Origin: an uncultured Alphaproteobacteria bacterium
GTDB lineage: Bacteria > Pseudomonadota > Alphaproteobacteria > UBA6615
Direction: 5' to 3'
Length of the DNA: 64,000 nucleotides
NCBI GenBank assembly: GCA_964276015.1
Contig: CAXYDO010000002.1
Coordinates: forward strand, 162,151-226,150
In this document: piece after piece, positions 4,240-20,348 of the stretch
How positions within the stretch are numbered: the stretch's first letter is position 1
How the letters are laid out: every line of letters begins with the position of its first letter
Position numbers and translations under genes: made by a program
Notes under the pieces: model-generated
Database searches by the model: none
Told to the model about the DNA's origin: nothing
What the model saw: only the letters and a program-made list of their open reading frames with translations

Positions 4240-4309
4240 GATCAGCTTCACTTCCCGAATATCTCAAGTGCCACCAACGACACGCGCGGTGCAGCACTTT
4301 TTTCACAAA

Positions 4310-4531
4310 CTAACTGACGTCCCAGTCGTACTTACGTCCCTGTTCGTCCAAGATTCCACACTGAGCGCGGGTTTTCCCGGTGTTAGGGTCAAGACGCCAA
4401 AATTCCGCGCGGCCATCGACCGGCGAATGCCTGTAACCCGCAATGTGGTTTTCGAACGGACGGATATTACCGAAACCAGTCCACATTCCCAGCCGTGGAG
4501 AGTAAATAAATCTCTTGTTTTTCGAATTCAA
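4310..4531 (-). CDS. Small hypothetical ORF (73 aa) in the gltB upstream region; doubtful.
   Basis: ORF-track entry only. No recognisable motif. It sits in the 400-bp leader/promoter region upstream of gltB on the same strand. Confidence 0.15.
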   Translation of the reverse strand: MNSKNKRFIYSPRLGMWTGFGNIRPFENHIAGYRHSPVDGRAEFWRLDPNTGKTRAQCGILDEQGRKYDWDVS

Positions 4532-4641
4532 GTCCTCCAGGGAAAACGGTCGGTGTTTGGGGTGTTTTTGGGTGTTAACGCTTGGTTCAAAGGACCTGAG
4601 ACAACAACAATCTGGCTGCTTACTTCATATACAATCTTCAA

Positions 4642-5307
4642 TCACCCCCGCTTCCACGCGCGTAATTCCACCGCCGTCACGCCGGTCTTGAGCTTTTCCA
4701 TCATCTCGGCCTCCGCCGCCTCGCGCTTGATCGAGGCTTCGATAGTTGCGGTCACCATGGCTTTGGGGATCACCACCACGCCGTCGCCGTCGCCCAGAAC
4801 CAGGTCGCCCGGGGCTATGATCACGTCACCGAAGGCCAGGGTCCCGTTGATTTTGAAGTCGCCATTCAAGTCTTTCAGGGTGCCGCGCATGCACAGGCCT
4901 CTGGCGAAGACCGGCCAGCCTTTTTGGGCCAGCGCCGCGCCGTCGCGCACGCAGCCGTCGATGACCAGGCCGCCGAGCTGGCGGGCCTTGGCCGACGTGG
5001 CCATCACCTCGCCGAAATAGCCACCTTCATAGCAGCCGCTCACATCCGCCACAATCACGTCACCGGGCTGGGCCTCGTCGATGGCGAAATGGATCGCCAG
5101 ATTATCCAGCGGCGGGCCCTTCACCGGGAAGGCAGGCCCGCAGATGGTCATGCCCGGGGCGATTGCCTTGATCGCGGACGGCAGCGAGCCGATGCGCCCG
5201 GCGGCCTCGTGCAAGGTGGAAGAATCGATCTGAGCGGCGGCGGCCAGCAATTCAGGTGTCAGTGCGTCGGCTGAATTATGCGCTTCGATATTTTGCTGTG
5301 CGGCCAT
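4642..5307 (-). CDS. RraA family protein, HMG/CHA aldolase-like (4-hydroxy-4-methyl-2-oxoglutarate aldolase/RraA fold).
   Basis: The 222-aa product from the internal ATG (MAAQQNIEAHN...) has the typical RraA/DlpA profile (GDVIVADVSG...GGEVMATSAKARQLGGLVIDGCVRD). The track ORF extends to 5373, but the ATG at 5307 gives a family-typical length. Confidence 0.8.
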   Translation of the reverse strand: MAAQQNIEAHNSADALTPELLAAAAQIDSSTLHEAAGRIGSLPSAIKAIAPGMTICGPAFPVKGPPLDNLAIHFAIDEAQPGDVIVADVSGCYEGGYFGEVMATSAKARQLGGLVIDGCVRDGAALAQKGWPVFARGLCMRGTLKDLNGDFKINGTLAFGDVIIAPGDLVLGDGDGVVVIPKAMVTATIEASIKREAAEAEMMEKLKTGVTAVELRAWKRG

Positions 5308-5426
5308 TTCGGCGCGTCCCCTTAAAATGATAACGTTGGGGCCGAGTTTAGACGCCGCACGCGTGTTCGTCATTGGGGGGAAGTGGATGTTGGGGTTTAC
5401 CGAAATTCGTCATACCCGAGAAAACC

Positions 5427-5575
5427 AACCCTCTCCGCCCTTTAGGGGGGAGAGGGTGGTGAGCGGAGCGAACCGGGTGAGGTGGGCGTCGATGGCCCGC
5501 ACGATCCATCCCGGAAGCGTCCTGCCCTCCCCCACCTCACCCCGGCCCTCTCCTCCTGGGAGGAGAGGGTGTTGG
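5427..5575. repeat. Structured intergenic repeat, copy A (~150 bp). It has nested hairpins CCCTCTCC...GGAGAGGG and a long-range GGGTGAGGTGGG / CCCACCTCACCC pairing.
   Basis: Read directly. Nearly the same element, reverse-complemented, is at 6833..6978. Copy A lies in the divergent intergenic region and ends 15 nt before the ATG at 5590. Confidence 0.75.
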
Positions 5576-5589
5576 ATCGGAGCCGTATC

Positions 5590-6819
5590 ATGACCGGTGT
5601 ACTTTCCGGCCTGCGGGTCGTTGAGGGGTCGGCTTTTGTCGCGGCGCCCACTTGCGGGATGACACTCGCCCAGCTCGGCGCCGAAGTGATCCGCTTCGAC
5701 ATGATCGGCGGCGGCATCGATTACAAGCGCTGGCCGGTGACCGCCGAAGGCAACTCGATCTACTGGGCCGGGCTGAACAAGGGTAAGCGCTCCATTGCGG
5801 TGGATTTCCGCAAACCTGAGGGACAGGAAATCCTCTCTAGCCTGATCACCCAGCCCGGCGAAGATCGGGGCATACTTCTGACGAATTTCCCTATGAAAGG
5901 CTGGCTCTCCTATGAGGCGCTGCAGGCCAAACGCGCGGATTTGATCGCGCTGAATATTCTGGGTAACCCGGATGGCTCCGTCGCGGTGGATTACACGGTC
6001 AACGCGGCGGTGGGCTTTCCCTATGTGACCGGGCCCGATGCGGAGACCCACCCGGTGAACCATGTCTTCCCGGGCTGGGACGTTTCCACTGGCTATGCGG
6101 CGGCCACAGGGCTGCTGGGGGCCGAGCGCCACCGGCGGCTAACGGGGGAAGGCCAGTATGTCTCGCTGTCTCTGGCGGACATGGCTTTCGCGACCGTGGG
6201 CAATCTTGGTTATATCGGCGAGATCCAAATCAACGGCACCGAGCGGCCCCATATCGATAATGATGTCTATGGCAGCTACGGGCGGGATTTTGCTACCAAA
6301 GACGGTCGCCAGGTGATGATCATCGCCGTGTCGGTCCCCCAGTGGAAGAAGCTGGTCGAAGCAACAGGCACCCAGGCCGAGATGGCCGCCCTGGAGGCCG
6401 AAACAGGGCTCGATTTCACCCGTGAGGAAGACCGCTACGCTGCGCGAGACGCCATCGCCGGGCCACTGGGCGGCTGGTGCGCGGCGCACACGCTGGAGGA
6501 AATCCGCACGGTGTTCGACGCCCATAATGTGTGTTGGGGACCCTACCAGACCTTCGGCCAGATGGTCGCCGAAGATCCCCGCGCCTCCAAGGCGAACCCG
6601 TTGTTTGCAGAGATCGACCAACCCGGGATCGGCACCTATCTGGCGCCGGGCTCCCCTCACAAGTTCGGTGCCTTCGAACGTGAACACCTCCGCGCGCCGG
6701 TGCTCGGCGAACACACGAATGAAATCCTGTCCGGAGAGCTGGGCCTGAGCGACGGCGAGATCGGCAAGCTCCACGATGCCGGCGTGATCGCGGGGATGGA
6801 TGCGGGGATGGGTACATGA
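5590..6819 (+). CDS. CoA-transferase family III (CaiB/BaiF-type) protein.
   Basis: The 409-aa product from the ATG at 5590 (MTGVLSGLRVVEGSAFVAAPTCGMTLAQLGAEVIRFD...) has the canonical family III N-terminus and length. The upstream in-frame extension in the track passes through the repeat element and is not coding. Confidence 0.9.
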   Translation: MTGVLSGLRVVEGSAFVAAPTCGMTLAQLGAEVIRFDMIGGGIDYKRWPVTAEGNSIYWAGLNKGKRSIAVDFRKPEGQEILSSLITQPGEDRGILLTNFPMKGWLSYEALQAKRADLIALNILGNPDGSVAVDYTVNAAVGFPYVTGPDAETHPVNHVFPGWDVSTGYAAATGLLGAERHRRLTGEGQYVSLSLADMAFATVGNLGYIGEIQINGTERPHIDNDVYGSYGRDFATKDGRQVMIIAVSVPQWKKLVEATGTQAEMAALEAETGLDFTREEDRYAARDAIAGPLGGWCAAHTLEEIRTVFDAHNVCWGPYQTFGQMVAEDPRASKANPLFAEIDQPGIGTYLAPGSPHKFGAFEREHLRAPVLGEHTNEILSGELGLSDGEIGKLHDAGVIAGMDAGMGT

Positions 6820-6832
6820 ACCTCGCTGTAAC

Positions 6833-6978
6833 CTCCCTCTCCTCCGGCGAGGAAAGGGTCGGGGTGAGGTGGGGGTGCGCACAGCCCATCCCGCTTAAGA
6901 CCGCACACGAATCCAGCACCCACCTCACCCGGTTCGTTGCGCTCAACATCTTCTCCCCCCTAAAGGGCGGAGAGGGTA
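6833..6978. repeat. Structured intergenic repeat, copy B. It is the reverse complement of copy A, with the same terminal hairpins and GGGTGAGGTGGG/CCCACCTCACCC arms.
   Basis: Reverse complement of 6833..6978 aligns to 5427..5575 across both terminal hairpins and the GGGTGAGGTGG / CCACCTCACCC arms (by eye ~70-75% over ~150 bp, most of the divergence in the central ~40 bp). It ends 13 nt before the ATG at 6991. Confidence 0.75.
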
Positions 6979-6990
6979 AAAGGTAAAACC

Positions 6991-8640
6991 ATGACACATG
7001 AAGCAATAGATTTTTGCCGAGAGGCCCTGCCCGATGCGCTGGCGTTTCGGGACGTGGCCGGGCGCACTGCAGCGGGACTCGCTGCCCCGGGCGGGCCGGT
7101 CGAACCGGTGTTGCTCGACACTCACCAGTTCGCCCTGCACGGCTATGCCTGGATGGCGACCTATGTGAACGCTCTCGAACAGCTGCTCGGCTGGGCCGAA
7201 CGGCTGGAAAGCGATGGGCGCTTCTCCGACCTGGAAAGCATGATCCTCACCTGTGGCTTCGGAGCGTATTTGAAGCAGCTCAAATACGGCATCGCCATGA
7301 GCCAGGACGAGATCGCCCGCCCGGGTGACCTGGGGCTCGACGAGAGTGACTTCTTTGGCGGTGCGGCGGCTCGCAAGCTGATGAAAGAGGGCGACAGTAT
7401 CGCCGTGCGTCAGGCCATCGCCGAAACCCTGCGGGATCGCAGCGGGGAATTCGGCGATCGCGGGCTTGATGAGACCCACGGCATGATCGCCGACCAGTTC
7501 CGGCGCTTCTCCGATGAAAAAGTCTCCCCTCATGCTCATGGCTGGCATGTGCGCGACGAACTCATTCCGCTCGAGATCATCCACGAGATGGCGGAGCTGG
7601 GCGTGTTCGGCCTCACCATCCCCGAGGAAGACGGCGGGTTGGGGCTCGGCAAGATCGCGATGTGCGTGGTCACCGAGGAGCTTTCCCGAGGCTATATCGG
7701 CGTGGGCTCGCTCGGCACCCGCTCCGAGATCGCCGCCGAGCTGATCCGGGTCAACGGCACACCGGCGCAGAAAGAAAAATACCTCGGCCCCATCGGCGCT
7801 GGCGAAATCCTGCCGACCGCGGTCTTTACCGAGCCCAATCACGGCTCGGATCTGGCCCATATCCGCGCCCGTGCCACACGGGATGGGGATGTATATCGGG
7901 TGAAGGGCAACAAGATCTGGATCACCCATGCCGCGCGCACCGACATGATGACCCTGATGGCGCGTACCGACCCGGATGAGGATGGCTATAGAGGCCTGTC
8001 CATGTTCCTGGCCGAAAAGCCCCGGGGCACAGAAGCGGACCCCTTCCCGGCTGCCGGCATGGAAGGTTCGGAAATCCGGGTTCTCGGCTATCGTGGCATG
8101 AAGGAATACGAGCTCGGCTTTGATGGCTTCGAGGTCGCCGCAGACAATCTGCTCGGCGAGCAGGAAGGCCAGGGCTTCAAACAGCTGATGGCAACTTTTG
8201 AGACCGCGCGGATCCAGACCGCCGCGCGGGCGGTTGGCGTTTCGCAAAACGCTCTCGAAGTGGCCTTCGGTTATGCCAATGACCGGGAGCAGTTCCGTCG
8301 GCCGATCGCAGACTTTGCCCGGGTTGGGGGCAAACTTGGCTGGATGGCGACGGAGACGATGATCGCTCGACAGCTGGCGTATTTCGCGGCCCGCCAGAAG
8401 GATTCAGACCAGCGATGTGACATCGAAGCGGGCATGGCCAAGCTACTCGGCGCCCGGGTCGCGTGGTCAAACGCAGATAACGGATTGCAGATCCACGGCG
8501 GCAATGGCTACGCCGAAGAGTATGATATCAGCCGAATTTTGTGTGATGCGCGCATTTTAAACATTTTCGAAGGCGCAGCAGAGATCCAGGCTGGTATCAT
8601 TGCCCGGGGCCTTCTGGGCCGACCCAATCGCGCATCGTGA
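6991..8640 (+). CDS. mcd: Acyl-CoA dehydrogenase with a ~170-aa N-terminal extension. Resembles (2S)-methylsuccinyl-CoA dehydrogenase of the ethylmalonyl-CoA pathway.
   Basis: 549 aa. The C-terminal ~380 aa is a standard ACAD fold (…TEPNHGSD…GNKIWITHA…IFEGAAEIQ). The extra N-terminal domain and overall length match Mcd-type enzymes rather than ordinary ACADs. The symbol is given with moderate confidence. Confidence 0.75.
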   Translation: MTHEAIDFCREALPDALAFRDVAGRTAAGLAAPGGPVEPVLLDTHQFALHGYAWMATYVNALEQLLGWAERLESDGRFSDLESMILTCGFGAYLKQLKYGIAMSQDEIARPGDLGLDESDFFGGAAARKLMKEGDSIAVRQAIAETLRDRSGEFGDRGLDETHGMIADQFRRFSDEKVSPHAHGWHVRDELIPLEIIHEMAELGVFGLTIPEEDGGLGLGKIAMCVVTEELSRGYIGVGSLGTRSEIAAELIRVNGTPAQKEKYLGPIGAGEILPTAVFTEPNHGSDLAHIRARATRDGDVYRVKGNKIWITHAARTDMMTLMARTDPDEDGYRGLSMFLAEKPRGTEADPFPAAGMEGSEIRVLGYRGMKEYELGFDGFEVAADNLLGEQEGQGFKQLMATFETARIQTAARAVGVSQNALEVAFGYANDREQFRRPIADFARVGGKLGWMATETMIARQLAYFAARQKDSDQRCDIEAGMAKLLGARVAWSNADNGLQIHGGNGYAEEYDISRILCDARILNIFEGAAEIQAGIIARGLLGRPNRAS

Positions 8641-8658
8641 ATCGGGATTCTTTTTTTT
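8631..8658 (+). terminator. Probable intrinsic terminator after the mcd-like gene: a short GAATC/GATTC hairpin followed by a T8 run.
   Basis: gtgaatcgggattcTTTTTTTT lies directly after the TGA at 8638-8640. A T8 run is rare in a 65% GC genome. Confidence 0.4.
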
Positions 8659-8828
8659 AAATCAAACAACTATTCAAATACGTGAATAATAAATACTACT
8701 TTTTAGAGGATTTCTTTGTGATTATTCGCGCGAACACCTGACTACATTACTACCTTCAAGGACGCACTTACCACTTTAATGTCAAGGGCTTCTGTCTTGT
8801 CACTGAATTAGTTAGACGCCATGCTGAT

Positions 8829-8850
8829 CGCGTTAACTGCGGTTAACGCG
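8829..8850. promoter_or_regulatory. Perfect 9-bp inverted repeat CGCGTTAAC-tgcg-GTTAACGCG inside a 550-bp AT-rich non-coding island (8641..9190).
   Basis: Read directly. The island has no ORF of 60 aa or more in any frame and is much lower in GC than the flanking genes. Confidence 0.4.
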
Positions 8851-9190
8851 ATCTTACCAAAGACGCATCACGAGGATCGGCAAACGTATGAACAACCGCA
8901 TCTTCGTCAGCCTGGCTCGCCAGCCGGCTAAGAACATGGCGGTTCGTTACCCGGTCATCTATGACAAGTACTGAGGAAGTAGCGATATTTTACAATGTTT
9001 TAATTGAAGGCACCAACACGATTATTGAGGCGCGATATTCCCGCAAAAAGAGTGTTCGACAAATCTCTCAAAAACCCTGAATTGCCATTCTCGCAACCGT
9101 TTAGCGCCATTTAAGCCCATCCACGCGCGGTTCGTGTTAACAATTCGCTAACCAATTGAATTAGCCAAACAAACCCTGTGAACCGCCCAT

Positions 9191-9991
9191 ATGATTCAGA
9201 ATGACGTCCTGATCATCGATTCCGTAACCAAATTTGGCGACGCCCCACAAGGCCGGGTCGCCATCGCGGCGTCCCATGGTGGCGTCTATGCCGGATATCT
9301 CGCCGCGCGGGCTGGCATCCGTGGGGTCATCCTGCACGACGCGGGAATCGGCCGAAACGAAGCCGGAATCGCCTCTCTGCCCTATCTCGACGATCTGAGG
9401 ATCGCGGGTGCGACGATCGATTATCGCAGCGCCCGGATCGGTGACGGCGTAGGAATGGCCGCAACCGGCATCATCAGCCACGTGAACGAAACCGCCCGTT
9501 TGGCCGGCGGCACGGTTGGTCAGCTGGCCATAGAAACGGCCCTTGTGATGCAAACGGCACCAGGCGGCGATGGACCGGTTCCCAAATATGACGAAGCGCG
9601 TTTTGTTCTGCTTGAGACCTCCGGAAGGCCCACGGTCATCGGGTGCGATTCAACCTCGCTGGTCCGCCCCGAGGATGTTGGCCAGATTGTGATCACCGCC
9701 TCACACGGGGACCTGCTCAAGGAAGCTCCCAGTTGGGGGAACCGACCCGATGTACACGCGGCCGTCTTCAATGACGCGGGTGCCGAAGACCCGACCCGCC
9801 TGCCCGACCTCGACACGAGATCCATAGCCGCCGCGACGGTTTCGACCGATAGCGCACGAATTGGCGATGCGCGCTCCACTTATGAAGACGGCATGATCTC
9901 CCACGTCAACGCCACAGCGCATGCCCATGGCGCAGCACAAGGCATGACGTGCATCGCCTTCGTAGAATTGATGCGTGAGATCAACGCCTAG
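9191..9991 (+). CDS. Hypothetical protein (266 aa) built from two internally duplicated ~125-aa halves.
   Basis: GC-rich, host-like coding. Both halves share ...ASHGG/ASHGD...SARIGD(G/A)...G(I/M)ISHVN(E/A)TA... I did not recognise the family. It overlaps the convergent E1-beta gene by 4 nt. Confidence 0.55.
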   Translation: MIQNDVLIIDSVTKFGDAPQGRVAIAASHGGVYAGYLAARAGIRGVILHDAGIGRNEAGIASLPYLDDLRIAGATIDYRSARIGDGVGMAATGIISHVNETARLAGGTVGQLAIETALVMQTAPGGDGPVPKYDEARFVLLETSGRPTVIGCDSTSLVRPEDVGQIVITASHGDLLKEAPSWGNRPDVHAAVFNDAGAEDPTRLPDLDTRSIAAATVSTDSARIGDARSTYEDGMISHVNATAHAHGAAQGMTCIAFVELMREINA

Positions 9992-10953
9992 GCGAGCATT
10001 GCCTTGACCCGCGCTGCAATCCGGTCGGCCTTGATCTTGTAGGCTTCTTCGAGCGGGATCGAAAACGGGATCGGAATGCGTTCACCACCCAGCCGGGCCA
10101 CGGGAACCCCGAGCTCTTCGGCAACTTCGGCAGCGATTTCACCGCCGAATCCGCCGACCCGAACCGCTTCATGCACGACCAGCAGACGCCCGGTTTTGGC
10201 GACCGAGGCCATGATGCAGTCGCGGTCCCAGGGCCAGAGGGTGCGCAAATCGATCACCTCGACAGAAACACCTTCTCCGGCGAGCCGTTCTGCGGCTTCC
10301 GACACCACGCCGACCTGTGCTGCCCAGCTCACAAGAGTGATATCGCTGCCCTCGCAAACCGTCTTGGCGACCCCAAGCGGAATAGCCGACTGGTCGGCTT
10401 CATCGACCTCGCCAATGACGCCCCACAGCCCCTTGTGTTCCATGTAGACGACCGGGTCATCACAACGGATCGCCGATTTGAGCAATCCACGATTATCTGC
10501 CGGCGTCCCCGGCGTAACGACGACCAGACCGGGCACATGGGTGTACCAGGCTTCGGGTGACTGAGAATGCTGTGCAGCAATCCCGCCCCGAATCCCGATG
10601 GGCATTCGTGCCACCATCGGCACCCGCGCCTGGCCGCCAAACATATAACGGGCCTTGGCAGCCTGATTGACGAGTTCATCCACAGCGCACATGGCAAAGT
10701 CCGAGAAGCGCAATTCAGCGATCGGGCGTGTGCCGGCCATGGCGGCTCCCACGGCCGCCCCCATGATTGTAGATTCGGAAATCGGCGTATCGACGATGCG
10801 ATCCTCCCCGAACTCTGCCTGCAGGTCCATGTACTGACCCGCCATGCCGCCTTCATAGCCAAGGTCTTCCCCGAGCGCCCAAACGGTGGGATCGCGGTGC
10901 ATTTCTTCCTGAAGGCCCAGCCGGGCCGCCTGGGCGTAGGTCATCTCGCTCAT
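9988..10953 (-). CDS. 2-oxoacid dehydrogenase E1 component beta subunit (transketolase-like; AcoB/PdhB-type), copy 1.
   Basis: 321 aa with strong E1-beta motifs (...RIVDTPISESTIMGAAVGAAMAGTRPIAE...QHSQSPEAWYTHVPGL...). ATGA overlap with the upstream E1-alpha. Confidence 0.9.
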   Translation of the reverse strand: MSEMTYAQAARLGLQEEMHRDPTVWALGEDLGYEGGMAGQYMDLQAEFGEDRIVDTPISESTIMGAAVGAAMAGTRPIAELRFSDFAMCAVDELVNQAAKARYMFGGQARVPMVARMPIGIRGGIAAQHSQSPEAWYTHVPGLVVVTPGTPADNRGLLKSAIRCDDPVVYMEHKGLWGVIGEVDEADQSAIPLGVAKTVCEGSDITLVSWAAQVGVVSEAAERLAGEGVSVEVIDLRTLWPWDRDCIMASVAKTGRLLVVHEAVRVGGFGGEIAAEVAEELGVPVARLGGERIPIPFSIPLEEAYKIKADRIAARVKAMLA

Positions 10954-11969
10954 TGGATTGCCTCCGGCATCTTCGGCGCACCAACATCCTGAACATCGGT
11001 GAAAGCCAGCGAAGGATCAGGCCAGGGCGCGCCCTTGGCGTCTTTCACGTAGCCGGCGATCTCGGTATCAACCTCGGCGCGGATGCTTTCAAGTTCTTCC
11101 GGGGTCAGGCCGTTTGCCAGCAACCAGGTTTCCGTACGCCCCACCGGTTCGTTCGCGAGCGCAGCTTCGGCCTCGCCCTCGGGGCGATAACCCGCGGGAT
11201 CATGGGCAAAGTGGCCGCGCAATCGGTAGGTCATGGCCTGGATCAGCTGAGGACCGGACCCGTTGCGGATTTCAGAGACGATCCGCGCGGCCGTGCGATC
11301 AACCTCAAACAGATCATTGCCGTCGATCGTAATCGCCGGAAGGCCGAAACTCTCTGCCCGCTTGGCAATGCCTTCACCCGCGGTGACCTTTTTCGTGTGG
11401 GTGGTGGCTGCGATCTGATTGTTCTCACAAATAAACAACACCGGCAGCTCATAGACCTTGGCCCAGTTGAGAGCCTCCATGAACGGGCCCCGATTGATAC
11501 CGCCATCACCGATGAAATTGACGACGATCCGATCCTGCTTAAGCAGTTTAACCGCCTGAGCAGCGCCGACTGAAATCGTGCACCCATCGGCAATCACACC
11601 GTTGGCGCCCAGCATCCCGACGGAGAAATCCGCGATATGCATGGAACCGCCCTTGCCGTTACTAGTCCCGCCTTCTTTACCGAAAAGCTCCAACATCATG
11701 GCGCGAGGACGCGCCCCTTTGGCGATCGAATGACCGTGACCACGGTGATTGCTGGTGAGGTAATCGTCGTCACGGAGGTTCTCGCAGATCCCGACAGCGA
11801 TCGATTCTTCACCGATATACTGATGTACCGAACCACGCACATTGCCGGCGTGAAAGTTCTCACCCGCGGCCTCTTCAAAGGCACGGATAACCAGCATTTT
11901 ACGATACATTGCCGCAACGCGAGCGGGTTCGTTGGCTAGATTGCTTGTCACGTGACGCTCCCCCGTCAA
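10950..11969 (-). CDS. 2-oxoacid dehydrogenase E1 component alpha subunit (ThDP-binding; AcoA/PdhA-type), copy 1.
   Basis: 339 aa, with ...HRGHGHSIAKG...GGKGGSMHIADF...GDGGINRGPFMEALNWA... Confidence 0.9.
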   Translation of the reverse strand: MTGERHVTSNLANEPARVAAMYRKMLVIRAFEEAAGENFHAGNVRGSVHQYIGEESIAVGICENLRDDDYLTSNHRGHGHSIAKGARPRAMMLELFGKEGGTSNGKGGSMHIADFSVGMLGANGVIADGCTISVGAAQAVKLLKQDRIVVNFIGDGGINRGPFMEALNWAKVYELPVLFICENNQIAATTHTKKVTAGEGIAKRAESFGLPAITIDGNDLFEVDRTAARIVSEIRNGSGPQLIQAMTYRLRGHFAHDPAGYRPEGEAEAALANEPVGRTETWLLANGLTPEELESIRAEVDTEIAGYVKDAKGAPWPDPSLAFTDVQDVGAPKMPEAIQ

Positions 11970-12078
11970 TTTTTCATGGCCGACGCGTTTTCCCGCGAAG
12001 GTTCGGTGATACTATCGCGCCAGAATAACGACCGGGTAAAGCACCTGTGCAGATCGGTCGGCACTCAGGGGAATCAGA

Positions 12079-13833
12079 ATGAGCGATACAGCTGCAGACG
12101 GTGGCAACGTCAAAATCGAGATGAGCGGCGGCGAAGCCATCGCCGAAATGTTCAAGCTGCATGATGTCGGGCCGATGTTCGGCATGGCCGGTTTCCAGCT
12201 ACTCCCCTTCTATGATGCGGTGCGCGAACTTGGCCTGAAGCACACCCTGATCAACGATGAGCGCAGCGGTGCTTTCATGGCAGATGCCTGGGCGCGGGTG
12301 ACCGGACGGCCCGGCGTGTGTGACGCGACCCTGGGGCCCGGCGCGACAAACCTGCTGACCTCTCTCACAGAATCTCTGAACGCGGGTATTCCCATGATCG
12401 CCATGATCGGTGACAGCAATCGGGAACATTCCTGGAAGAACATGACCCAGGAGACCCGGCAGGTCGAAATGCTGCGCCCGGCGGTCAAGGAAGTGATCCG
12501 CGTCGAGGTCGGCACCCGCATTCCCGAGCATATTCGCTACGCCTACACCGTTGCGACGACCGGACGCCCCGGCCCAGTGTTGCTCGATGTACCCGAAGAC
12601 ATCTGCCACGGTGTTTTCGAATTCTCTGCCGACGATTTGTTCGCCGACCCGACGACCACCAATGCGCCATCACGGCGCTCCCGCCCGGCGCGGGACGATG
12701 TAGAACGCGCCGCGAAATTACTCGCCGACGCCAAGCGTCCCGTCATCCTCGCAGGTGGTGGCATACATATTTCCGGGGCCCAGGACGAACTGACGGCTTT
12801 TGCCGAAGAACAAGCCATCCCGGTCGGACATACGCTTTCGGGCAAAGGCTCGATCGCTTGCGTACATGACCTCTCGCTTGGGCTGTTTGGCCGATATTCC
12901 CGCACCGCCAATGACATTCTGGACACCGCCGATGCGATTTTCGTGGTCGGCTGCAAGCTCGGGGAAATCGCCACAAAGCGTTATACGATTCCCCGGCCAG
13001 GTATTCCGATCATTCATCTCGACATCATGGCGGCCGAGATCGGTCGCTGGGCCCGCACGGATATCGCGCTTTGCGGTGATGCGCGCGAAGGCATCGCGGA
13101 TTTGCGCGAAGCACTTTCTGACGGCGCGGAAAAACGCCGGGCGTCCCGCGCAGACTTCATCACGGAAATTTCGGCCGGAAAGGCCAAATGGCGTGCCGAA
13201 GTCGAAGAACGGCTGACCTCAGACGAGGTGCCGGTCAACATGGCGCGCATGGTCCATGAGCTGAACAACGTCCTGCCGGAAGACGCAATCCTGGTCGCCG
13301 ATGGTGGCTTTGCCGCCCATTGGACCGGCCTGATTTATGACACCAAGAAAGCCGGACGGGGCTATATCCCGGATCGGGGCATGGCCTCCATCGGCTATGG
13401 CGTCTCCGGTGGCATCGGCGCCCAGCTGGCCGCGCCGGATCGTCCGGTCTTCACCCTCACCGGTGACGGGGGGCTGAACATGACCCTCGGTGATCTTGAA
13501 ACCGCGGCCCGCCTCAAGGTTCCGGTCACGGTGCTGGTCGTGAACAACGCCGCGTCGGGCTACATCAAGGCATTGCAGCACGCGATGTTCGGCGGTCGCT
13601 ATCAATCCGCAGATCTGTCGGAGTTGAACTACGCCAACATCGCCGAAAATCTCGGCTGTCGCGGCATTCGGGTAGAGCACCCTGACCAGCTGGCACCTGC
13701 CTTACGCACGGCCCTGGAAAATCGCGACAAGCCCAATGTGATCGACATCGTTGTGACCCGCGATGCCGGCAAGATGCTGCCCGGTGTCGACAACCGCACA
13801 GCCCCGATCAAAAAAGGCGACCGGATCGCATAA
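12079..13833 (+). CDS. Thiamine-diphosphate-dependent enzyme of the acetolactate synthase / sulfoacetaldehyde acetyltransferase superfamily (three-domain ThDP enzyme).
   Basis: 584 aa, with GGEAIAEMFKLHDV...GPGATNL...LTGDGGLNMTLGDLETA... RBS gggga before the ATG. Transcribed divergently from the copy-1 E1 alpha/beta pair. Confidence 0.9.
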   Translation: MSDTAADGGNVKIEMSGGEAIAEMFKLHDVGPMFGMAGFQLLPFYDAVRELGLKHTLINDERSGAFMADAWARVTGRPGVCDATLGPGATNLLTSLTESLNAGIPMIAMIGDSNREHSWKNMTQETRQVEMLRPAVKEVIRVEVGTRIPEHIRYAYTVATTGRPGPVLLDVPEDICHGVFEFSADDLFADPTTTNAPSRRSRPARDDVERAAKLLADAKRPVILAGGGIHISGAQDELTAFAEEQAIPVGHTLSGKGSIACVHDLSLGLFGRYSRTANDILDTADAIFVVGCKLGEIATKRYTIPRPGIPIIHLDIMAAEIGRWARTDIALCGDAREGIADLREALSDGAEKRRASRADFITEISAGKAKWRAEVEERLTSDEVPVNMARMVHELNNVLPEDAILVADGGFAAHWTGLIYDTKKAGRGYIPDRGMASIGYGVSGGIGAQLAAPDRPVFTLTGDGGLNMTLGDLETAARLKVPVTVLVVNNAASGYIKALQHAMFGGRYQSADLSELNYANIAENLGCRGIRVEHPDQLAPALRTALENRDKPNVIDIVVTRDAGKMLPGVDNRTAPIKKGDRIA

Positions 13834-13844
13834 GGAGACAACCG

Positions 13845-14861
13845 ATGAGCGAGACAGCAGCGCGCGAGAACAAGCCCGCGCATATTTTCGAACTCTACAA
13901 AACCATGTGCCTGATCCGTGCCTTCGAAGAGAAGTCGGAAATCGCCTTCGACGAAGGCTTTATCAACGGATCGATCCACCAGTATATCGGCCAAGAAGCG
14001 GTCGGCACCGGGGTGTGCAGCAACCTTCGCAAGACCGACTACATTCTTTCAAACCATCGCGGGCACGGCCACTCCATCGCCAAGGGCGCTGATCCGAAAG
14101 CCATGATGAAAGAACTAATGGGGCGTGTCGGGGGCACCAGCGGGGCCAAAGGCGGCTCGATGCATATCGCGGATTTCTCCGTCGGCATGCTGGGGGCCAA
14201 CGGCGTGCTCGCCGACGGCCTGACCATGGGGGTCGGCGCTGCGCAGGCCATCAGCATCAAGGGTGAAGACAACATTGTTACCGTGTTCGTCGGCGACGGG
14301 ACGACCAATCGCGGACCGTTCTATGAAGCCCTCAACTGGGCCATGGTCTTTGAACTCCCAATTCTGTTTGTTTGCGAAAACAATACCTACGCCTCCTCGA
14401 CCTTGACCCGCAGCGTGACGGCCGGCGACGGTCCGGTCGCGCGCGCCAAGGCTTTTGGCATGCCGGCCTTTGATGTGGACGGGAATGACATTTCAGCCGT
14501 CGACGAGTTGGCGGCGGACCTGATCTCTCGCGTGCGCAGCGAACAGGGCCCGCACTTCCTTCACGCCCGGACCTATCGGGTGAAGGGGCATATCTCACGC
14601 GATAAGCTGTTGTATCGCCGGGACGGTGAAACCGCAGAAAACTTGGAGAACGAACCCCTTGCCCGTTGTGCCGGATGGCTTTCAGAGAACGGGATCGAGG
14701 AAGCCGATTTGCGTGCCGCACATGGCCAAGCCTATGCCCGGATCGATACCGCGGTGGAAGCCGCCAAGGCATCCCCCTTTCCCGATGCCGCGCTTGCCTA
14801 CGCCGATGTACAGGATTTCGGCCCGCCCGAACCCTGGACAAGTACGGGAGGTGCGTCATGA
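13845..14861 (+). CDS. 2-oxoacid dehydrogenase E1 alpha subunit, copy 2 (paralogue of 10950..11969).
   Basis: 338 aa. It has the same motif set as copy 1 (HRGHGHSIAKG, GGSMHIADF, GDGTTNRGPFYEALNWA), diverged to roughly 55-60% identity by eye. RBS aaggagacaacc. Confidence 0.9.
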   Translation: MSETAARENKPAHIFELYKTMCLIRAFEEKSEIAFDEGFINGSIHQYIGQEAVGTGVCSNLRKTDYILSNHRGHGHSIAKGADPKAMMKELMGRVGGTSGAKGGSMHIADFSVGMLGANGVLADGLTMGVGAAQAISIKGEDNIVTVFVGDGTTNRGPFYEALNWAMVFELPILFVCENNTYASSTLTRSVTAGDGPVARAKAFGMPAFDVDGNDISAVDELAADLISRVRSEQGPHFLHARTYRVKGHISRDKLLYRRDGETAENLENEPLARCAGWLSENGIEEADLRAAHGQAYARIDTAVEAAKASPFPDAALAYADVQDFGPPEPWTSTGGAS

Positions 14862-15841
14862 CCGAGATGACTTTTGCTGATGCGGTCCGTGAAGGACTGG
14901 CCGAGGAAATGCGACGGGACCCGTTGGTCTGGGCGCTGGGAGAAGATCTCTCGACCGCCCATGGTGGCACGAGCGCCAACCAGTATCTGGGTCTGATTGA
15001 CGAATTTGGTCCCAAGCGCATCGTTAACACGCCGATCTCCGAGAATACGATCATGGGTGCTGCGGTGGGTGCTGCGGTTGCCGGCACACGGCCGGTTGCT
15101 GATTTACGCATGGCGGATTTCGGCATGTGCGCGGTTGATGAGCTGGTCAACCAGGCCGCCAAGATCCGCTACATGTTTGGCGGTCAGGCTCGCGTGCCAC
15201 TTGTGGTCCGGCAGGCCATCGGCATGCGCAAGGGCAGTGCCGCACAACACTCCCAGTCCACCGAAGCCTGGTACGTCCACACACCAGGCCTCGTCGTCGT
15301 TGCCCCGGGAACCCCAGCAGACGGACGTGGCCTTCTAAAGGCGTCCATTCGCGCCGACGACCCGGTGGTGTTCATGGAACACAAGGACCTCTGGATTTCC
15401 AAAGGAGATGTGCCCGATGATGAAGGTGTGGTCCTAATCGGGGTCGCTAAAACCCTGCACGAGGGCACCGACCTAACCATCGTGTCCTGGTCACGCATGG
15501 CCCATCTGGCCGTTGAGGCCGCTGAAATTCTCGCCGGCGACGGCGCCTCTGTCGAAGTCATCGACTTGCGCACCCTGTGGCCCTGGGACAAAGACGCAGT
15601 TTATGCGTCGATCAAGAAAACCGGACGCCTGCTTGTGGCTCAGGAAGCTGTTCAGGTTGGCGGCTTTGCCGCAGAAATCATGGCGGACGTGTCGGAGAAC
15701 CGCCCGAACGATTTGAAAACCCATGCCCGGCGCATTGGTGCACCGCGCATGCCTGTCCCTTATGCTGAACCCATGGAAAACGAATTCCGGGTTACAACCG
15801 AACGCGTGGTCGCCAAGGCCCGCGAAGTTCTAGATGCCTGA
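14858..15841 (+). CDS. 2-oxoacid dehydrogenase E1 beta subunit, copy 2 (paralogue of 9988..10953).
   Basis: The ATG at 14858 overlaps the E1-alpha stop (ATGA). The 327-aa product MTEMTFADAVREGLAEEMRRDPLVWALGEDL... is parallel to copy 1. The track's longer ORF from 14666 is a non-coding upstream extension. Confidence 0.9.
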   Translation: MTEMTFADAVREGLAEEMRRDPLVWALGEDLSTAHGGTSANQYLGLIDEFGPKRIVNTPISENTIMGAAVGAAVAGTRPVADLRMADFGMCAVDELVNQAAKIRYMFGGQARVPLVVRQAIGMRKGSAAQHSQSTEAWYVHTPGLVVVAPGTPADGRGLLKASIRADDPVVFMEHKDLWISKGDVPDDEGVVLIGVAKTLHEGTDLTIVSWSRMAHLAVEAAEILAGDGASVEVIDLRTLWPWDKDAVYASIKKTGRLLVAQEAVQVGGFAAEIMADVSENRPNDLKTHARRIGAPRMPVPYAEPMENEFRVTTERVVAKAREVLDA

Positions 15842-15856
15842 ACAGGAAACCAGATT

Positions 15857-16711
15857 ATGAAATTGACTACCTTTGATGCCGGCAACGGCGCGCGTGTTGG
15901 TCTTGTCACCGATGCCGGTGTTGTCGATTTGACCCAGCATGCGGGTGTGACCTCCCTGCGAGGCCTGATCGCCGGCGGCAAGGTCGCTGATATGTCCGCC
16001 TATGCGGGTGCCGCTGCTGACCACGCCCTTGATGACGTGACCTTCCTGCCAGTCATTCCCGACCCGGAGCATATCTGGTGCGTCGGCGTGAACTATATGG
16101 ATCATCTGCAGGAGGCGATCGATGCTGGCCTGCCCCGTTCGAAATCCGAATCCCCGATGATCTTCGGTCGCTACGCCGACACCATGGTCGGCCACAAACA
16201 GAATCTGATGAAGGCGCCGATCGTCCAGAAGCTCGACTATGAGTGCGAGCTCGCCGTGATTATCGGCAAGGGTGGGCGTTATATCGCCAAGGAAGATGCC
16301 CTGTCACACATCGCAGGATATTCCTGCTTCAATGAGGGCAGTGCCCGCGATTGGCAGTACCACACCTCCCAGGTCGTCCCCGGCAAAAACTTCGCCAAGA
16401 CCGGCGGGTTCGGTCCCTGGATGGTCACAGCCGACGAAATCCCCGACCCTCAGGTGCTCGATATCTCCACCGTGCTGAACGGACAGACGATGCAAAGCGC
16501 CAACACAAAAGACATGATCTTCGACGTGGCGACGGTGATCTCCTATGTCTCGAACATCTCCGAGTTGCAGCCCGGTGACGTGATCGCCTCTGGCACCCCC
16601 TCGGGCGTCGGACAGTCCCGCGAGCCGCAGGTATTCATGCAGCCCGGAGACACCTGTGAGATCCATATCGAGAATGTGGGTGTTCTGGTGAACGAGATCG
16701 CCGAGGGATAA
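15857..16711 (+). CDS. Fumarylacetoacetate hydrolase (FAH) family protein (2-keto-4-pentenoate hydratase / HpcE-like).
   Basis: 284 aa, with ...WCVGVNYMDH...ELAVIIGKGG...GDVIASGTPSGVG... RBS aggaaacc. Confidence 0.9.
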   Translation: MKLTTFDAGNGARVGLVTDAGVVDLTQHAGVTSLRGLIAGGKVADMSAYAGAAADHALDDVTFLPVIPDPEHIWCVGVNYMDHLQEAIDAGLPRSKSESPMIFGRYADTMVGHKQNLMKAPIVQKLDYECELAVIIGKGGRYIAKEDALSHIAGYSCFNEGSARDWQYHTSQVVPGKNFAKTGGFGPWMVTADEIPDPQVLDISTVLNGQTMQSANTKDMIFDVATVISYVSNISELQPGDVIASGTPSGVGQSREPQVFMQPGDTCEIHIENVGVLVNEIAEG

Positions 16712-16715
16712 AGGC

Positions 16716-17636
16716 CTAAGCCGCTTTCCGCAGCCCAAACAAACGCCCGTCGATCAGCGTCAGACCCAGCGCGATGAAAGCCATCCCGATGGCCTGCTCT
16801 GTGGTCAAAGTCTCTCCGAGGATAAAAATTCCGAGGAGGAGCGCGCTGATAGGCACCAGGAAGTTCACCAGCAGGATGTTGATCGCACCTGCTGTCGCCA
16901 GAATGCGGAAATAGATCAGATAGGCGAACGACGTCGAGATCACCGCGAGCCCAATCATCGCACCCCAGGCGGGCAGGCCCGGATTGGCGATATTCCAGGG
17001 TTGCTCGAACAGCAGTGCAACGGGCAGTAGCAGCACAACCGACATCGACATCTGTCCGGTGGCCACGACCAGCGGCGGGACTTTGCGGGCCGCGAAACGC
17101 CGTCCGTAGATCGCCGAAATCGCATACAGGAAAGCAGCGCCCAGAATCGCGAGCTGTCCCAAAAGGTCACTTCCCAGGTCACCGAGCAGCTGCGGACCAA
17201 TCAGGAATACGACCCCGGTAAGCCCCGCGACCACCCCCAGCGCTTTGCCGACGGTAAAACCTTCGTCCTGGGTAAAATAATGCGCCGCGATAACGGCAAA
17301 GAGCGGCGTGGTCGCGATCAGAATTGATGCCAGCCCCCCGGTGATATGCACCTGTCCCCAGACGATCAGGAAAAACGGTACCGCTGAATTGGTTGCAGCC
17401 ATGATCAGCAGCGCGAACCAGGTCTCCCGCTCACGAGGCACATGCACGCCAGTTGCCAGGATGGCGACCCAGAGAATGGCCGCGGCCAGGGACACCCGAA
17501 ACAGGATGATCAGCAGTGGCGGCACATCAGGGATTGCGATCTCATTGAAAAAGAACGTGCAGCCCCAGCACGCACCCAGAATGAAAAGAAGGACCCACTC
17601 AGACGGGGTCATCCGAAGATCGCTAGTTTTTGCCAT
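16716..17636 (-). CDS. DMT-superfamily (EamA-type) transporter.
   Basis: 306 aa, 10-TM hydrophobic profile, duplicated EamA halves. Confidence 0.85.
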   Translation of the reverse strand: MAKTSDLRMTPSEWVLLFILGACWGCTFFFNEIAIPDVPPLLIILFRVSLAAAILWVAILATGVHVPRERETWFALLIMAATNSAVPFFLIVWGQVHITGGLASILIATTPLFAVIAAHYFTQDEGFTVGKALGVVAGLTGVVFLIGPQLLGDLGSDLLGQLAILGAAFLYAISAIYGRRFAARKVPPLVVATGQMSMSVVLLLPVALLFEQPWNIANPGLPAWGAMIGLAVISTSFAYLIYFRILATAGAINILLVNFLVPISALLLGIFILGETLTTEQAIGMAFIALGLTLIDGRLFGLRKAA

Positions 17637-17640
17637 CAGG

Positions 17641-18321
17641 TCAGGCCGTCAGCTCGGCTTTGAGCTTCGCGACGGCGGTATAGGGCGCGGTAAAGACCGG
17701 CCGCCCTTCGATGGGCGTAATCTTGCGCGGCACCAGCCCCATCGAAAACTGGCCGAGCATCAGGCTTTCGCAGTCGGTCATGGACGCGGCTGACGTCACC
17801 ACCAGATCGTCATGGGCCGGGCGATCCCCTTCCAGCAGAATTTCAAAGGCCCCATCAGCCACATCACTGATCAGGTCATAGGTAAGATCATGGGCTGCGG
17901 CATAACTGACAATATCGTCGGACAGACATTTGATCGTGCCCGGCGTCGTCGCGAGAATACCCAGCCGGTTTCCTTGCCCGAAAGCCGCCTCGATCATGGC
18001 CTCGTAGGAGGTCAGCACGGGGATATCCATTCCCTCGCGCCCGGCTTCGACCAGACGCCCAAACACAGAGCCACAGAAGATCACCGCATCCGCGCCGGTA
18101 TTCTGGCTATAGCGCAAGAGCCGTGCGATCCGGGCGTAGCATTCCTCGGGCATGACATCGGGCACGGTCATGTCGTCATTGATGAAGTCCGCATAAAGCG
18201 ACTGGTCAAGCACGCAGACCGGCTCGGCCTCAGGCCAGAGTTCGGCAAACGCTGCGCGCACCGTCGGAAAGGCGACTTCCGTGGGGGAAACAACACCGAT
18301 ACGCGGGGATGATCTGGACAT
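17641..18321 (-). CDS. Asp/Glu/hydantoin racemase superfamily protein (AroM / arylmalonate decarboxylase-like).
   Basis: 227 aa from the internal ATG at 18319-18321 (MSRSSPRIGVVSPT...). The conserved ...ADAVIFCGSVFGR...GILATTPGT...CESLMLGQFSM... pattern is present. Tandem paralogue of the next gene. Confidence 0.8.
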   Translation of the reverse strand: MSRSSPRIGVVSPTEVAFPTVRAAFAELWPEAEPVCVLDQSLYADFINDDMTVPDVMPEECYARIARLLRYSQNTGADAVIFCGSVFGRLVEAGREGMDIPVLTSYEAMIEAAFGQGNRLGILATTPGTIKCLSDDIVSYAAAHDLTYDLISDVADGAFEILLEGDRPAHDDLVVTSAASMTDCESLMLGQFSMGLVPRKITPIEGRPVFTAPYTAVAKLKAELTA

Positions 18322-18326: not shown

Positions 18327-18983
18327 CTAAGCTCCCAACAGCCGCTTGAGCTTGCGCACAGATGTATGCGGTGCGGTCAGCACCGGACGGTGCGGCATAT
18401 CGGTGAACTGCTTGACCGCGCTGGTCATGGAGAACTGCCCCAACATCAGACAGTCGCACTCGGTCATCCGGTCGGCGGCATCGGCCACCATGCGGTCATG
18501 GGTTTCTACATCGCCAGCCAGGATGATCGGCCGCGCCGCATCCTCCACAAGCTGAACCAGGGTATAGGGCTTACTGTGCTCCTGGGAGTAACGCTCGATA
18601 TCGTCGAGCAGGCATTGCAGCGATCCCGACACGGTGGTCAGGATGCCGAAACGGGACCCGGCGGCAAACGCCTCCTCAATCATGGATTCCTGGGCGCTGA
18701 GGACCGGCACGGTGATCTGCTCGCGGGTGGCTTCCACGACGCGGCCAAACACCGAGCCACAGAACACGATCCCGTCGGCGCCAAAATTCTGGGCGTATTG
18801 GAGCAGCACCAGCATGCGTTCATAGGTCTCGTCCGTGACCCCTTTGCCGCCGCCGTAATCGGCGTAAAGGGATTCATCGAGCACCGTGATCGGCTCGCAT
18901 TCCGGCCAAACGTCGGCAAAGGCCTCGGCCACGGCGTCCATCGCGTTATCCATGGGGGTGATAACCCCGATACGTGCTGACAT
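18327..18983 (-). CDS. Asp/Glu/hydantoin racemase superfamily protein, tandem paralogue.
   Basis: 218 aa (MSARIGVITPM...GADGIVFCGSVFGRV...GILTTVSGS...CDCLMLGQFSM...). 5-nt spacer to the downstream paralogue. Confidence 0.8.
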   Translation of the reverse strand: MSARIGVITPMDNAMDAVAEAFADVWPECEPITVLDESLYADYGGGKGVTDETYERMLVLLQYAQNFGADGIVFCGSVFGRVVEATREQITVPVLSAQESMIEEAFAAGSRFGILTTVSGSLQCLLDDIERYSQEHSKPYTLVQLVEDAARPIILAGDVETHDRMVADAADRMTECDCLMLGQFSMTSAVKQFTDMPHRPVLTAPHTSVRKLKRLLGA

Positions 18984-19109: not shown

Positions 19110-20348
19110 ATGACGGATATCTACATCGTTGGCATTGGGATGACTGCGCTGGGGAAGTTCCCGGACAAATCGGTCAAGGAACTCACCAACGAGGCGGTTT
19201 CTGCCGCCCTTTCTGATGCATGTGCTGCCATGGGCGATGTTGAGGCCGCGTGGTTCTCCAATACCCGTCAGGGGATGATGGAAGGCCAGAACACCGTGCG
19301 CGGCCAATGTGCGTTGCGCGCCATGGGGTTCGAGTCCATTCCCATCGTGAATGTGGAAAACGCCTGCTGCTCATCCTCCACGGGTCTCAATCAGGCCTAT
19401 GCCTATCTCAAGGCTGGCATGGGGGGCGTGGCGCTGGTCGCAGGCAGCGAGAAAATGTTCTACCCGGAAAAACGCGATCTCATGTTTCAAGCCTTTCGCG
19501 GCGGCTGGGATGTGCACACCCAGGAAGAAACCGAGGCCCGGCTGCTCGCGCTCGGTGAAGGGTTGGAACTACCGCCCGAAGCGCTCGAAGACACCGGTGA
19601 ACACAGCGTCTTTATGGATATTTATGCCTCGCTGGCCCGCCAGCACATGAAGCATTTCGGCACCACCCAGCGCCAGATCGCGGCCGCCGCTGCCAAAAGC
19701 CATTTCCACTCGACCATGAACCCCCTGGCTCAGTACCAGAAGGATTTCAGCGTCGATGATGTGCTCAACGACCGGTTGATTTCATGGCCCCTGACCCGCG
19801 CCATGTGTGCGCCGCTCTCTGACGGAGCCGGAGCGCTTGTGCTCGCCAGTGCGGACGCACTCGATCGCTTTGACAAGTCACGGGCGATAAAGGTCATGGG
19901 CACAGCGCTTGTCAGCGGTTCGGACCGCGACCCGAACGACTTCGACAACCATCTCGGCATGGTCGCCGCCAACCGCGCCTACAATATGGCCGGGGTCTCG
20001 CCCGAAGAAGTGGATGTCGCCGAAGTCCACGACGCGTCCGCCTATGCCGAAATCGTACAGGTCGAAAATATGGGCTTCTGCGCCCGTGGCGAGGGCGGTG
20101 CGCTGGCCGAAAGCGGTGAAACCAAACTCGGCGGGCGTATTCCAGTGAACACGTCCGGTGGGCTGCTATCGAAAGGCCATCCCATTGGGGCCACAGGCGC
20201 CATGCAAATCCACGAGCTGGTCACCCAGCTGCGCGGCGAGGCCGGAAAACGCCAGGTCGAAGGTGCAAAGATCGCCGCAGCCGAAAACGGCGGCGGGTTC
20301 TTCGGGATTGAGGAGGCCGCGACCGTGGTGACGGTGCTCGGTCGCTAG
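19110..20348 (+). CDS. Thiolase-like protein (SCP-x/DitF-type non-condensing thiolase family).
   Basis: 412 aa, with MTDIYIVGIGMTALGKF...NVENACCSSSTGL...GHPIGATG... Confidence 0.9.
   Translation: MTDIYIVGIGMTALGKFPDKSVKELTNEAVSAALSDACAAMGDVEAAWFSNTRQGMMEGQNTVRGQCALRAMGFESIPIVNVENACCSSSTGLNQAYAYLKAGMGGVALVAGSEKMFYPEKRDLMFQAFRGGWDVHTQEETEARLLALGEGLELPPEALEDTGEHSVFMDIYASLARQHMKHFGTTQRQIAAAAAKSHFHSTMNPLAQYQKDFSVDDVLNDRLISWPLTRAMCAPLSDGAGALVLASADALDRFDKSRAIKVMGTALVSGSDRDPNDFDNHLGMVAANRAYNMAGVSPEEVDVAEVHDASAYAEIVQVENMGFCARGEGGALAESGETKLGGRIPVNTSGGLLSKGHPIGATGAMQIHELVTQLRGEAGKRQVEGAKIAAAENGGGFFGIEEAATVVTVLGR

Follow-up and report, generated by a model that had tools for sequence, protein, structure and literature searches.

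The closest characterised relatives of the E1 proteins described here are AcoA and AcoB, which cleave an α-hydroxyketone (acyloin) with thiamine diphosphate (ThDP). In bona fide aco operons, acoAB lies beside the gene for the lipoyl-bearing E2 protein AcoC and often beside one for lipoate ligase. We analysed a 64-kb stretch of DNA from an uncultured alphaproteobacterium (contig CAXYDO010000002.1; hereafter the window), which is uniform in composition at about 60% G+C and identical to contigs from Arctic (Fram Strait) marine metagenomes. Two paralogous E1α–E1β gene pairs, one on each strand, flank the gene of a three-domain ThDP enzyme resembling acetolactate synthase (ALS) and acetohydroxyacid synthase (AHAS), and a gene for an uncharacterised 266-residue protein, here termed hyp266, lies next to the minus-strand pair. 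The window E1s share their domain architecture (E1_dh in the α-subunit; Transket_pyr and Transketolase_C in the β-subunit) and motifs with AcoA and AcoB, whose reaction is their best mechanistic analogue. However, neither AcoC nor another lipoyl partner is encoded near them and, unlike AcoAB, they are tied to the ALS-like enzyme and hyp266.

E1α–E1β pairs that work without E2 are already known as a kind; what is new here is the conserved module of hyp266, the ThDP enzyme and E1αβ. AviB1/AviB2 from the avilamycin cluster and Plm8/Plm9 from the paulomycin cluster are E2-less pairs of deoxysugar branching that add a ThDP-bound C2 unit, derived from pyruvate, to keto-sugars, which demonstrates that E1αβ pairs can be stand-alone carboligases (PMC4802897). 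Compared by description only, they have the lack of an E2 in common with the module, but they belong to actinomycete natural-product clusters with nucleoside diphosphate (NDP)-sugar genes, whereas the module occurs in primary or catabolic contexts in Proteobacteria and Poribacteria. The Haloferax oadhAB genes encode orphan AcoAB-like E1 paralogues for which pyruvate and 2-oxoglutarate have been excluded as substrates (PMC8305020); they come from a different lineage, and no association with an ALS-like enzyme or hyp266 has been reported for them. A literature search for E2-less catabolic E1s gave the paulomycin and Haloferax cases only. Our reading of the locus, to which we give roughly even weight, is that it represents one lineage's elaboration of a widespread four-gene module that would act as a lipoyl-independent ThDP lyase or carboligase.

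The hyp266–ThDP–E1 module across genomes

A search with the ThDP enzyme over one genome per species gave 244 relatives, and the locus analyses cover the best 80 of these (62–97% identical; numbered with the prefix L). We mapped the window proteins onto these loci and clustered all of their open reading frames (ORFs). Only four families recurred: the ThDP enzyme, hyp266, E1α and E1β. Their carriers, all of them metagenome-assembled genomes (MAGs), include members of marine Alphaproteobacteria ('Rhodospirillaceae'), soil Alphaproteobacteria, Stellaceae, Hyphomicrobiaceae, Poribacteria and Azotimanducaceae. No cultured carrier of the ThDP orthologue was found, with all 80 genome matches being MAGs and plasmid matches reaching at most 37% identity. 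Gene order differs between loci. It is hyp266–ThDP–E1α–E1β in Poribacteria, L024 and L099, and E1α–E1β–ThDP in L043 and L077; E1 is divergent from the other module genes in L038 and L073, and the duplicated E1 layout of the window is found also in L097. We conclude that the conserved unit is hyp266, the ThDP enzyme and one E1αβ pair, in reshuffled gene order. Where a preliminary description of the locus had pointed to an operon of ThDP enzyme, E1αβ and a fumarylacetoacetate hydrolase (FAH)-family protein as the unit whose conservation should be examined, the ThDP enzyme and E1αβ do recur, but FAH is restricted to the marine lineage.

That description had also overlooked hyp266, which accompanies the ThDP enzyme more constantly than any other neighbour. 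It is encoded in most of the 80 loci and adjoins the ThDP gene unless an E1 pair sits between them; in L052 and L068 the two genes overlap by 4 nt. Two hyp266 homologues (about 55% identity) that we looked up independently were both in the same module. In this protein, an α/β domain of about 130 residues is duplicated in tandem (halves 36% identical, E = 3e-14), with the paired motifs ASHG, (H/N)DAG, SARIGD and ISHVN. Its sequence is under constraint, the ratio of non-synonymous to synonymous substitution rates (dN/dS) being 0.1–0.2. We detected no match to it in Pfam or NCBIfam and none in the PDB by sequence or profile, and its homologues, which form more than 5000 clusters, are all named hypothetical. 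An AlphaFold2 model (30 homologues) is confident, with a predicted local distance difference test score of 89 and a predicted TM-score of 0.87, and a Foldseek search of the PDB with this model gave no match (best E 0.12, TM-score <0.2). Weak, sub-threshold matches to DUF1805 were seen in 9 of 30 family members; a literature search on that domain gave no functional paper.

The ThDP enzyme falls below every NCBIfam equivalog cut-off. Its best match was PRK06112 (404 bits against a cut-off of 673), and it scored 380 bits with TIGR00118, the model for the acetolactate synthase large subunit, for which the cut-off is 538. No gene for an ACT-domain small subunit was found adjoining it. Its best relatives in the PDB are BbmA (245 bits), AHAS and glyoxylate carboligase; a literature search for BbmA gave no paper.

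E1 relationships and searches for lipoyl partners

Both E1 pairs have the Pfam domains and motifs of heterotetramer-type ThDP E1s. The α-subunits carry the ThDP motif GDG...NN and YRxxGH (YRLRGH in the minus-strand copy), and the β-subunits the catalytic glutamate (within TPISE in the minus-strand copy) and the histidine of AQHSQ. The window α-subunits are 41–44% identical to AcoA of Burkholderia (operon acoR-acoX-acoA-acoB-acoC-lplA), 34–36% to PdhA of Sphingobium and 27–30% to BkdA of Rhizobium, the last two encoded in operons with E2 and E3. The models for pyruvate dehydrogenase (PDH) E1 were not reached: the α-subunits scored 284–301 bits with TIGR03182 (cut-off 394) and the β-subunits 314–316 bits with NF006667 (cut-off 321). 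In neighbour-joining trees of E1α with 200 bootstraps and one AcoA reference, the window proteins were in a clade apart from AcoA with 100% support, so that the tight clustering with genuine acetoin dehydrogenase E1s that the preliminary description had named as evidence against its view was not seen. The same clade holds hyp266–ThDP-linked E1s of Hyphomicrobiaceae, Minwuiaceae and others, and it includes stand-alone pairs of the cultured bacteria Azospirillum sp. TSH58 and Tistrella mobilis, near which neither an E2 nor the ThDP enzyme nor hyp266 is encoded. The Azospirillum pair lies on a plasmid in the order XRE–E1α–E1β–TRAP–SDR (L087, 8194–14640; tripartite ATP-independent periplasmic transporter, TRAP; short-chain dehydrogenase/reductase, SDR), and that of Tistrella on pTM3 in the order IclR–E1α–E1β, followed by unrelated genes (L096, 8692–11997).

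We searched for lipoyl partners by three routes. About 46 of the largest ORFs in the window were scanned with Pfam; E2 and E3 of PDH from Sphingobium and of branched-chain 2-oxoacid dehydrogenase (BKD) from Rhizobium, together with AcoC from Burkholderia, all from annotated plasmid operons, served as tblastn queries; and a hidden Markov model (HMM) built on five lipoyl domains was run on all six reading frames of the window and of each locus retrieved, the neighbourhood in related loci being ±10 kb. The Pfam scan found no 2-oxoacid_dh, Biotin_lipoyl or E3-type protein among these ORFs, tblastn with the two classical E2s, AcoC and the two E3s gave zero matches in the window, and the lipoyl HMM matched only its own training sequences in the window and all loci. 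Neither tblastn nor the HMM revealed a lipoyl domain or a classical E2 in the 80 ThDP-anchored loci or around the Azospirillum and Tistrella pairs. As positive controls, all reference E2s and a free 82-residue lipoyl protein of Thermus were recovered by these searches. The earlier statement that the window encodes no E2, E3 or lipoyl carrier is therefore upheld by all three methods.

In 1 of the 80 loci, a gene near the module encodes an E3-like protein with about 30% identity to dihydrolipoyl dehydrogenases. In this locus (L049), it and an α/β-hydrolase gene occupy 4158–7575 on the minus strand, 2.5–6 kb upstream of the ThDP gene, and the hydrolase resembles the C-terminal part of AcoC without its lipoyl domain. 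Apparent AcoC-like tblastn matches in L017, L020, L036 and L049 were discarded as generic α/β-hydrolase domains lacking a lipoyl domain.

The absence of a lipoyl partner across more than 80 rearranged loci, together with the grouping of the window E1s with stand-alone pairs, argues for an E1 without a dedicated E2. The preliminary description had proposed a non-canonical use of E1, a reasonable view to which the comparison of genomes lends further weight; it stands in so far as there is no classical E1–E2–E3 operon, while independence from E2 itself is what we infer. A competing explanation, which we consider unlikely, is that these are canonical, lipoyl-dependent acetoin or 2-oxoacid dehydrogenase E1s whose E2 and E3 partners, or a detached lipoyl protein, are encoded elsewhere, and that the ALS-like enzyme and hyp266 belong to the same catabolic regulon. 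Consistent with it, AcoA is the nearest characterised relative, and close homologues bear the IMG name acetoin:DCPIP (dichlorophenolindophenol) oxidoreductase. On the Thermus thermophilus plasmid pTF19b (L093, 4986–9951), moreover, an 'acoA' operon encodes E1α, E1β, the free 82-residue lipoyl protein and a TRAP transporter, which shows that a lipoyl partner can be a small protein of its own; the E3-like gene of L049, 4.5 kb upstream, points the same way. In 79 of the 80 loci and in the window, however, no lipoyl domain, E2 or E3 lies nearby, across several phyla and despite the reshuffling of genes; the sampled aco, pdh and bkd operons keep E2 adjacent, and those of pdh and bkd keep E3 too; and the window E1s share a separate, well-supported clade with the stand-alone pairs. 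The 82-residue lipoyl-domain protein of Thermus is annotated as hypothetical, and its operon contains no E2 catalytic domain.

Several further observations weigh against our reading of a lipoyl-independent module. The histidines used in the reductive acylation of lipoamide, typical of lipoyl-dependent E1s, are kept in both window pairs and in nearly all other members (QHS in 61 of 61 β-sequences, YRxxGH in 64 of 71 α-sequences), which leaves a lipoyl acceptor chemically possible, although these residues do not discriminate because they serve general ThDP catalysis too. Every alphaproteobacterial genome encodes the E2 and E3 of PDH and 2-oxoglutarate dehydrogenase elsewhere, and E3 is commonly shared. 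About 20 loci, mostly from soil Alphaproteobacteria, carry hyp266 and the ThDP gene without E1 within 10 kb, so the ThDP enzyme does not strictly require E1. Moreover, the E1s linked to the ThDP gene derive from at least two E1 clades: those that accompany the module in Poribacteria and Azotimanducaceae make up a second clade (98% support), which the tree leaves unplaced relative to AcoA, and we conclude that the module has recruited AcoAB-like E1s at least twice. Flanking genes vary by lineage, and no substrate can be named. Finally, hyp266 homologues of about 40% identity are also found away from ThDP and E1 genes. One of these, on a plasmid of Haloarcula sp. JP-L23 (L091, 2522–11501), lies between an SDR and a RuBisCO-like protein, in a stretch with genes for a four-carbon acid-sugar kinase (DUF1537 family), a class II aldolase and a TRAP system and with no isomerase among its annotations. 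Others are found in CoA-dependent operons of Rhizobium and Rhodococcus, and alone in Ponticoccus. On the basis of these varied contexts, we conclude that the hyp266 family comprises catalytic or accessory proteins of small-molecule metabolism and does not serve solely as a subunit of this ThDP enzyme.

Duplication of the E1 pair and the divergent region

The minus-strand and plus-strand paralogues are 53% (α) and 62% (β) identical; an estimate by eye of 55–65% was right for β and slightly high for α. In the E1α tree, the minus-strand and plus-strand proteins each formed a clade with 100% support, the two being sisters with 99%. The internal branching orders of the two clades mirror each other, which indicates a single duplication in an ancestor of the marine alphaproteobacterial lineage followed by vertical inheritance of both copies. 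The duplication is older than the split of lineages that are now about 70% identical, many of which still keep both copies. L007, L010, L013–15, L017–18 and L020–23 lack the plus-strand pair, and L024 lacks the minus-strand pair. In L007, the closest relative (ThDP enzymes 97% identical), the segment between the ThDP and FAH genes (11752–11972) joins the first ~60 nt of E1α(+) to the last ~120 nt of E1β(+). This junction is a deletion scar, and the plus-strand pair was lost recently. The repeated losses and the scar indicate that the two pairs are at least partly redundant in nature.

Such losses would also be expected if one pair were a redundant, decaying duplicate without a function of its own, but we regard this as very improbable. 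Where present, both pairs have intact ORFs and motifs, the duplication is old and the two copies persist in many lineages. Values of dN/dS against orthologues were 0.03–0.07 for E1β(−), 0.04–0.09 for E1α(−), 0.05–0.15 for E1α(+) and 0.03–0.07 for E1β(+), all with saturated dS, and by this measure both pairs appear to be under purifying selection. The pairs may instead be functional isoenzymes with overlapping roles. The ancestral layout of the module has a single E1 pair and the duplication is specific to one lineage, so the system does not require it.

The divergent layout around a short shared promoter region, put forward in the preliminary description, is not conserved. In 14 relatives, a gene for a luciferase-like (FMN-dependent) monooxygenase separates E1α(−) from the ThDP gene (for example, at 6902–7990 in L006 and L026); it is absent from the window and L009. 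Two further luciferase-like genes are present in another part of the window (Table 1). Translation of E1α(−) most likely starts at GTG 11951 rather than at TTG 11969, since gene callers chose this start on the identical metagenome contigs and the L009 orthologue has an ATG at the aligned position. With this start, the intergenic region measures 127 bp and not 109 bp as described before. Its conservation with L009 is limited to blocks such as GTG(A/C)TACTATC, and a consensus scan of positions 8600–17700 found no promoters or terminators above shuffle expectation. The palindrome GTCACGTGAC, previously placed at 11949–11958, lies at 11947–11956, overlapping the start codon of E1α(−). We ruled it out as an operator: it is missing from every related locus and kept only in the identical contigs, and perfect 10-bp palindromes occur in the window at chance frequency (85 found, about 62 expected).

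Gene neighbourhood and possible function

The families and coordinates of the six genes first described agree with Pfam and NCBIfam, apart from the start of E1α(−) (Table 1). The claimed ATGA overlap is present inside each E1 pair, and the stop codons of E1β(−) and hyp266 share a CTAG. The plus-strand genes for the ThDP enzyme, E1α, E1β and FAH are spaced by 11, −4 and 15 nt, which is consistent with the single operon proposed for them.

Table 1. Features of the window, with positions counted from the first nucleotide of the 64-kb stretch
Feature	Position	Strand	Length	Family match or remark
ORF	2833–4191	+	452 aa	No Pfam match; 60% identical counterpart in L009
RraA-like aldolase/decarboxylase	4642–5373	−		Pfam
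CoA-transferase III	5482–6819	+		Pfam; first of three family III paralogues
Long acyl-CoA dehydrogenase	6991–8640	+		Pfam
hyp266, uncharacterised	9191–9991	+	266 aa	No Pfam or NCBIfam match
E1β(−)	9988–10953	−	321 aa	Transket_pyr, Transketolase_C
E1α(−)	10950–11951	−	333 aa	E1_dh, 219 bits; length from GTG 11951 (ORF reaches TTG 11969)
Divergent intergenic region	11952–12078		127 bp	
ThDP enzyme, three-domain, ALS/AHAS-like	12079–13833	+	584 aa	TPP_enzyme_N, TPP_enzyme_M, TPP_enzyme_C
E1α(+)	13845–14861	+	338 aa	E1_dh, 211 bits
E1β(+)	14858–15841	+	327 aa	Transket_pyr, Transketolase_C
FAH-family protein	15857–16711	+	284 aa	FAA_hydrolase, 218 bits (Pfam gathering score 23.9); no NCBIfam equivalog reached
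EamA transporter	16716–17636	−		Pfam
Asp/Glu-racemase family	17641–18321	−	226 aa	Pfam; no NCBIfam assignment
Asp/Glu-racemase family	18327–18983	−	218 aa	Pfam; no NCBIfam assignment
SCP-x-type thiolase	19110–20348	+		Pfam
CoA-transferase III paralogue	29727–30854			
Luciferase-like genes (two)	44580–46689			
CoA-transferase III paralogue	52972–54225			

FAH, which the preliminary description counted among the parts of the locus, is not a core partner; it is found in marine alphaproteobacterial loci only, and its place is taken by a metallo-β-lactamase-fold gene (Lactamase_B) in L005 and by a glutathione S-transferase gene in L099. The downstream block of EamA, racemase and thiolase genes is syntenic in L006–L023 and absent outside the marine lineage, so its functional link to the module is uncertain. 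The two tandem racemase-family proteins are about 50% identical to each other. Upstream of hyp266, the block of RraA, CoA-transferase and acyl-CoA dehydrogenase genes is confined to the same lineage (L007, L009, L011, L015, L017, L021–23, L031–32, L034, L046 and L097). We rejected flanking genes as clues to the substrate, since each set is confined to its lineage and the sets do not agree with each other: soil Alphaproteobacteria have LeuA, and Poribacteria have glycoside hydrolase family 4 (GH4), enolase-superfamily, threonine-aldolase and major facilitator superfamily (MFS) genes. Taken as a whole, the window forms an island crowded with CoA-dependent and oxidative catabolic genes, with many CoA-transferases, dehydrogenases, oxidoreductases and transporters; it also encodes an enoyl-CoA hydratase, a 3-hydroxyacyl-CoA dehydrogenase, MaoC-like dehydratases and two molybdoenzymes.

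These surroundings bear on a further explanation, that the module is biosynthetic, its ThDP enzyme and E1s acting as carboligases that build an acyloin-type signal or secondary metabolite exported by EamA. The known E2-less E1αβ enzymes are biosynthetic carboligases, RenH-type E1s occur in natural-product clusters, and an exporter-family gene adjoins the operon in the marine lineage. We nevertheless hold this explanation to be improbable. EamA is restricted to that one lineage; Pfam scans of the window found no natural-product or sugar-nucleotide context; genes for nonribosomal peptide synthetases, polyketide synthases, glycosyltransferases, acyl carrier proteins or sugar nucleotides were found neither in the window nor in the loci; and the neighbours are catabolic (CoA-transferase, acyl-CoA dehydrogenase, thiolase, FAH and TRAP, MFS or ATP-binding cassette uptake systems).

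If the module is lipoyl-independent, E1 would be a stand-alone ThDP lyase, decarboxylase or carboligase whose substrate may be a small 2-oxoacid or an α-hydroxyketone. The ALS-like enzyme would act in series with it, making or breaking the adjacent C–C bond, and hyp266 might act on an intermediate common to both, for instance as a ketol isomerase or a decarboxylase, with the whole running in a presumably catabolic direction. The Haloarcula homologue of hyp266, set among acid-sugar genes with no annotated isomerase, is in keeping with this. Within its marine alphaproteobacterial branch, the module would then have gained a second E1 pair by duplication in inverted orientation and become embedded among CoA-dependent catabolic genes and FAH. 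The acetoin-forming operons budA-budB-budC and alsS-alsD, taken together with acoAB, may offer a parallel. In the module, a gene for a protein of about 260 residues directly precedes, and is often translationally coupled to, that of an ALS-like enzyme of about 580 residues, with an AcoAB-like E1 in addition and an SDR in several loci, and the logic of making and breaking an acyloin would be similar. The parallel has its limits: hyp266 resembles acetolactate decarboxylase neither in sequence nor in fold, and the ThDP enzyme fails all ALS equivalog cut-offs. More tentatively, hyp266, the ALS-like enzyme and E1αβ might constitute an undescribed lipoyl-independent ThDP pathway or complex, such as an 'acyloin shuttle' in which the ThDP enzyme would form an α-hydroxyketone, hyp266 would isomerise or decarboxylate it and E1 would cleave it on the other side.

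The duplication and FAH are lineage-specific decoration, and the object of interest is the module itself with hyp266, its component of unmatched fold. E1αβ proteins are routinely annotated as subunits of pyruvate or acetoin dehydrogenase; here a clade that crosses phyla has no lipoyl partner nearby. The close carriers are all uncultured MAGs, but related stand-alone E1 pairs in culturable Azospirillum and Tistrella make the question experimentally approachable. If E2-independence holds, this common annotation would need correcting, E1 chemistry would have a new catabolic use and the orphan hyp266 family would gain a functional handle. If, beyond this, the acyloin shuttle exists, it would be a new route for small oxo-acids in marine Alphaproteobacteria and sponge-associated Poribacteria, with hyp266 as a new enzyme family and these E1s as a new class of stand-alone catabolic enzymes.

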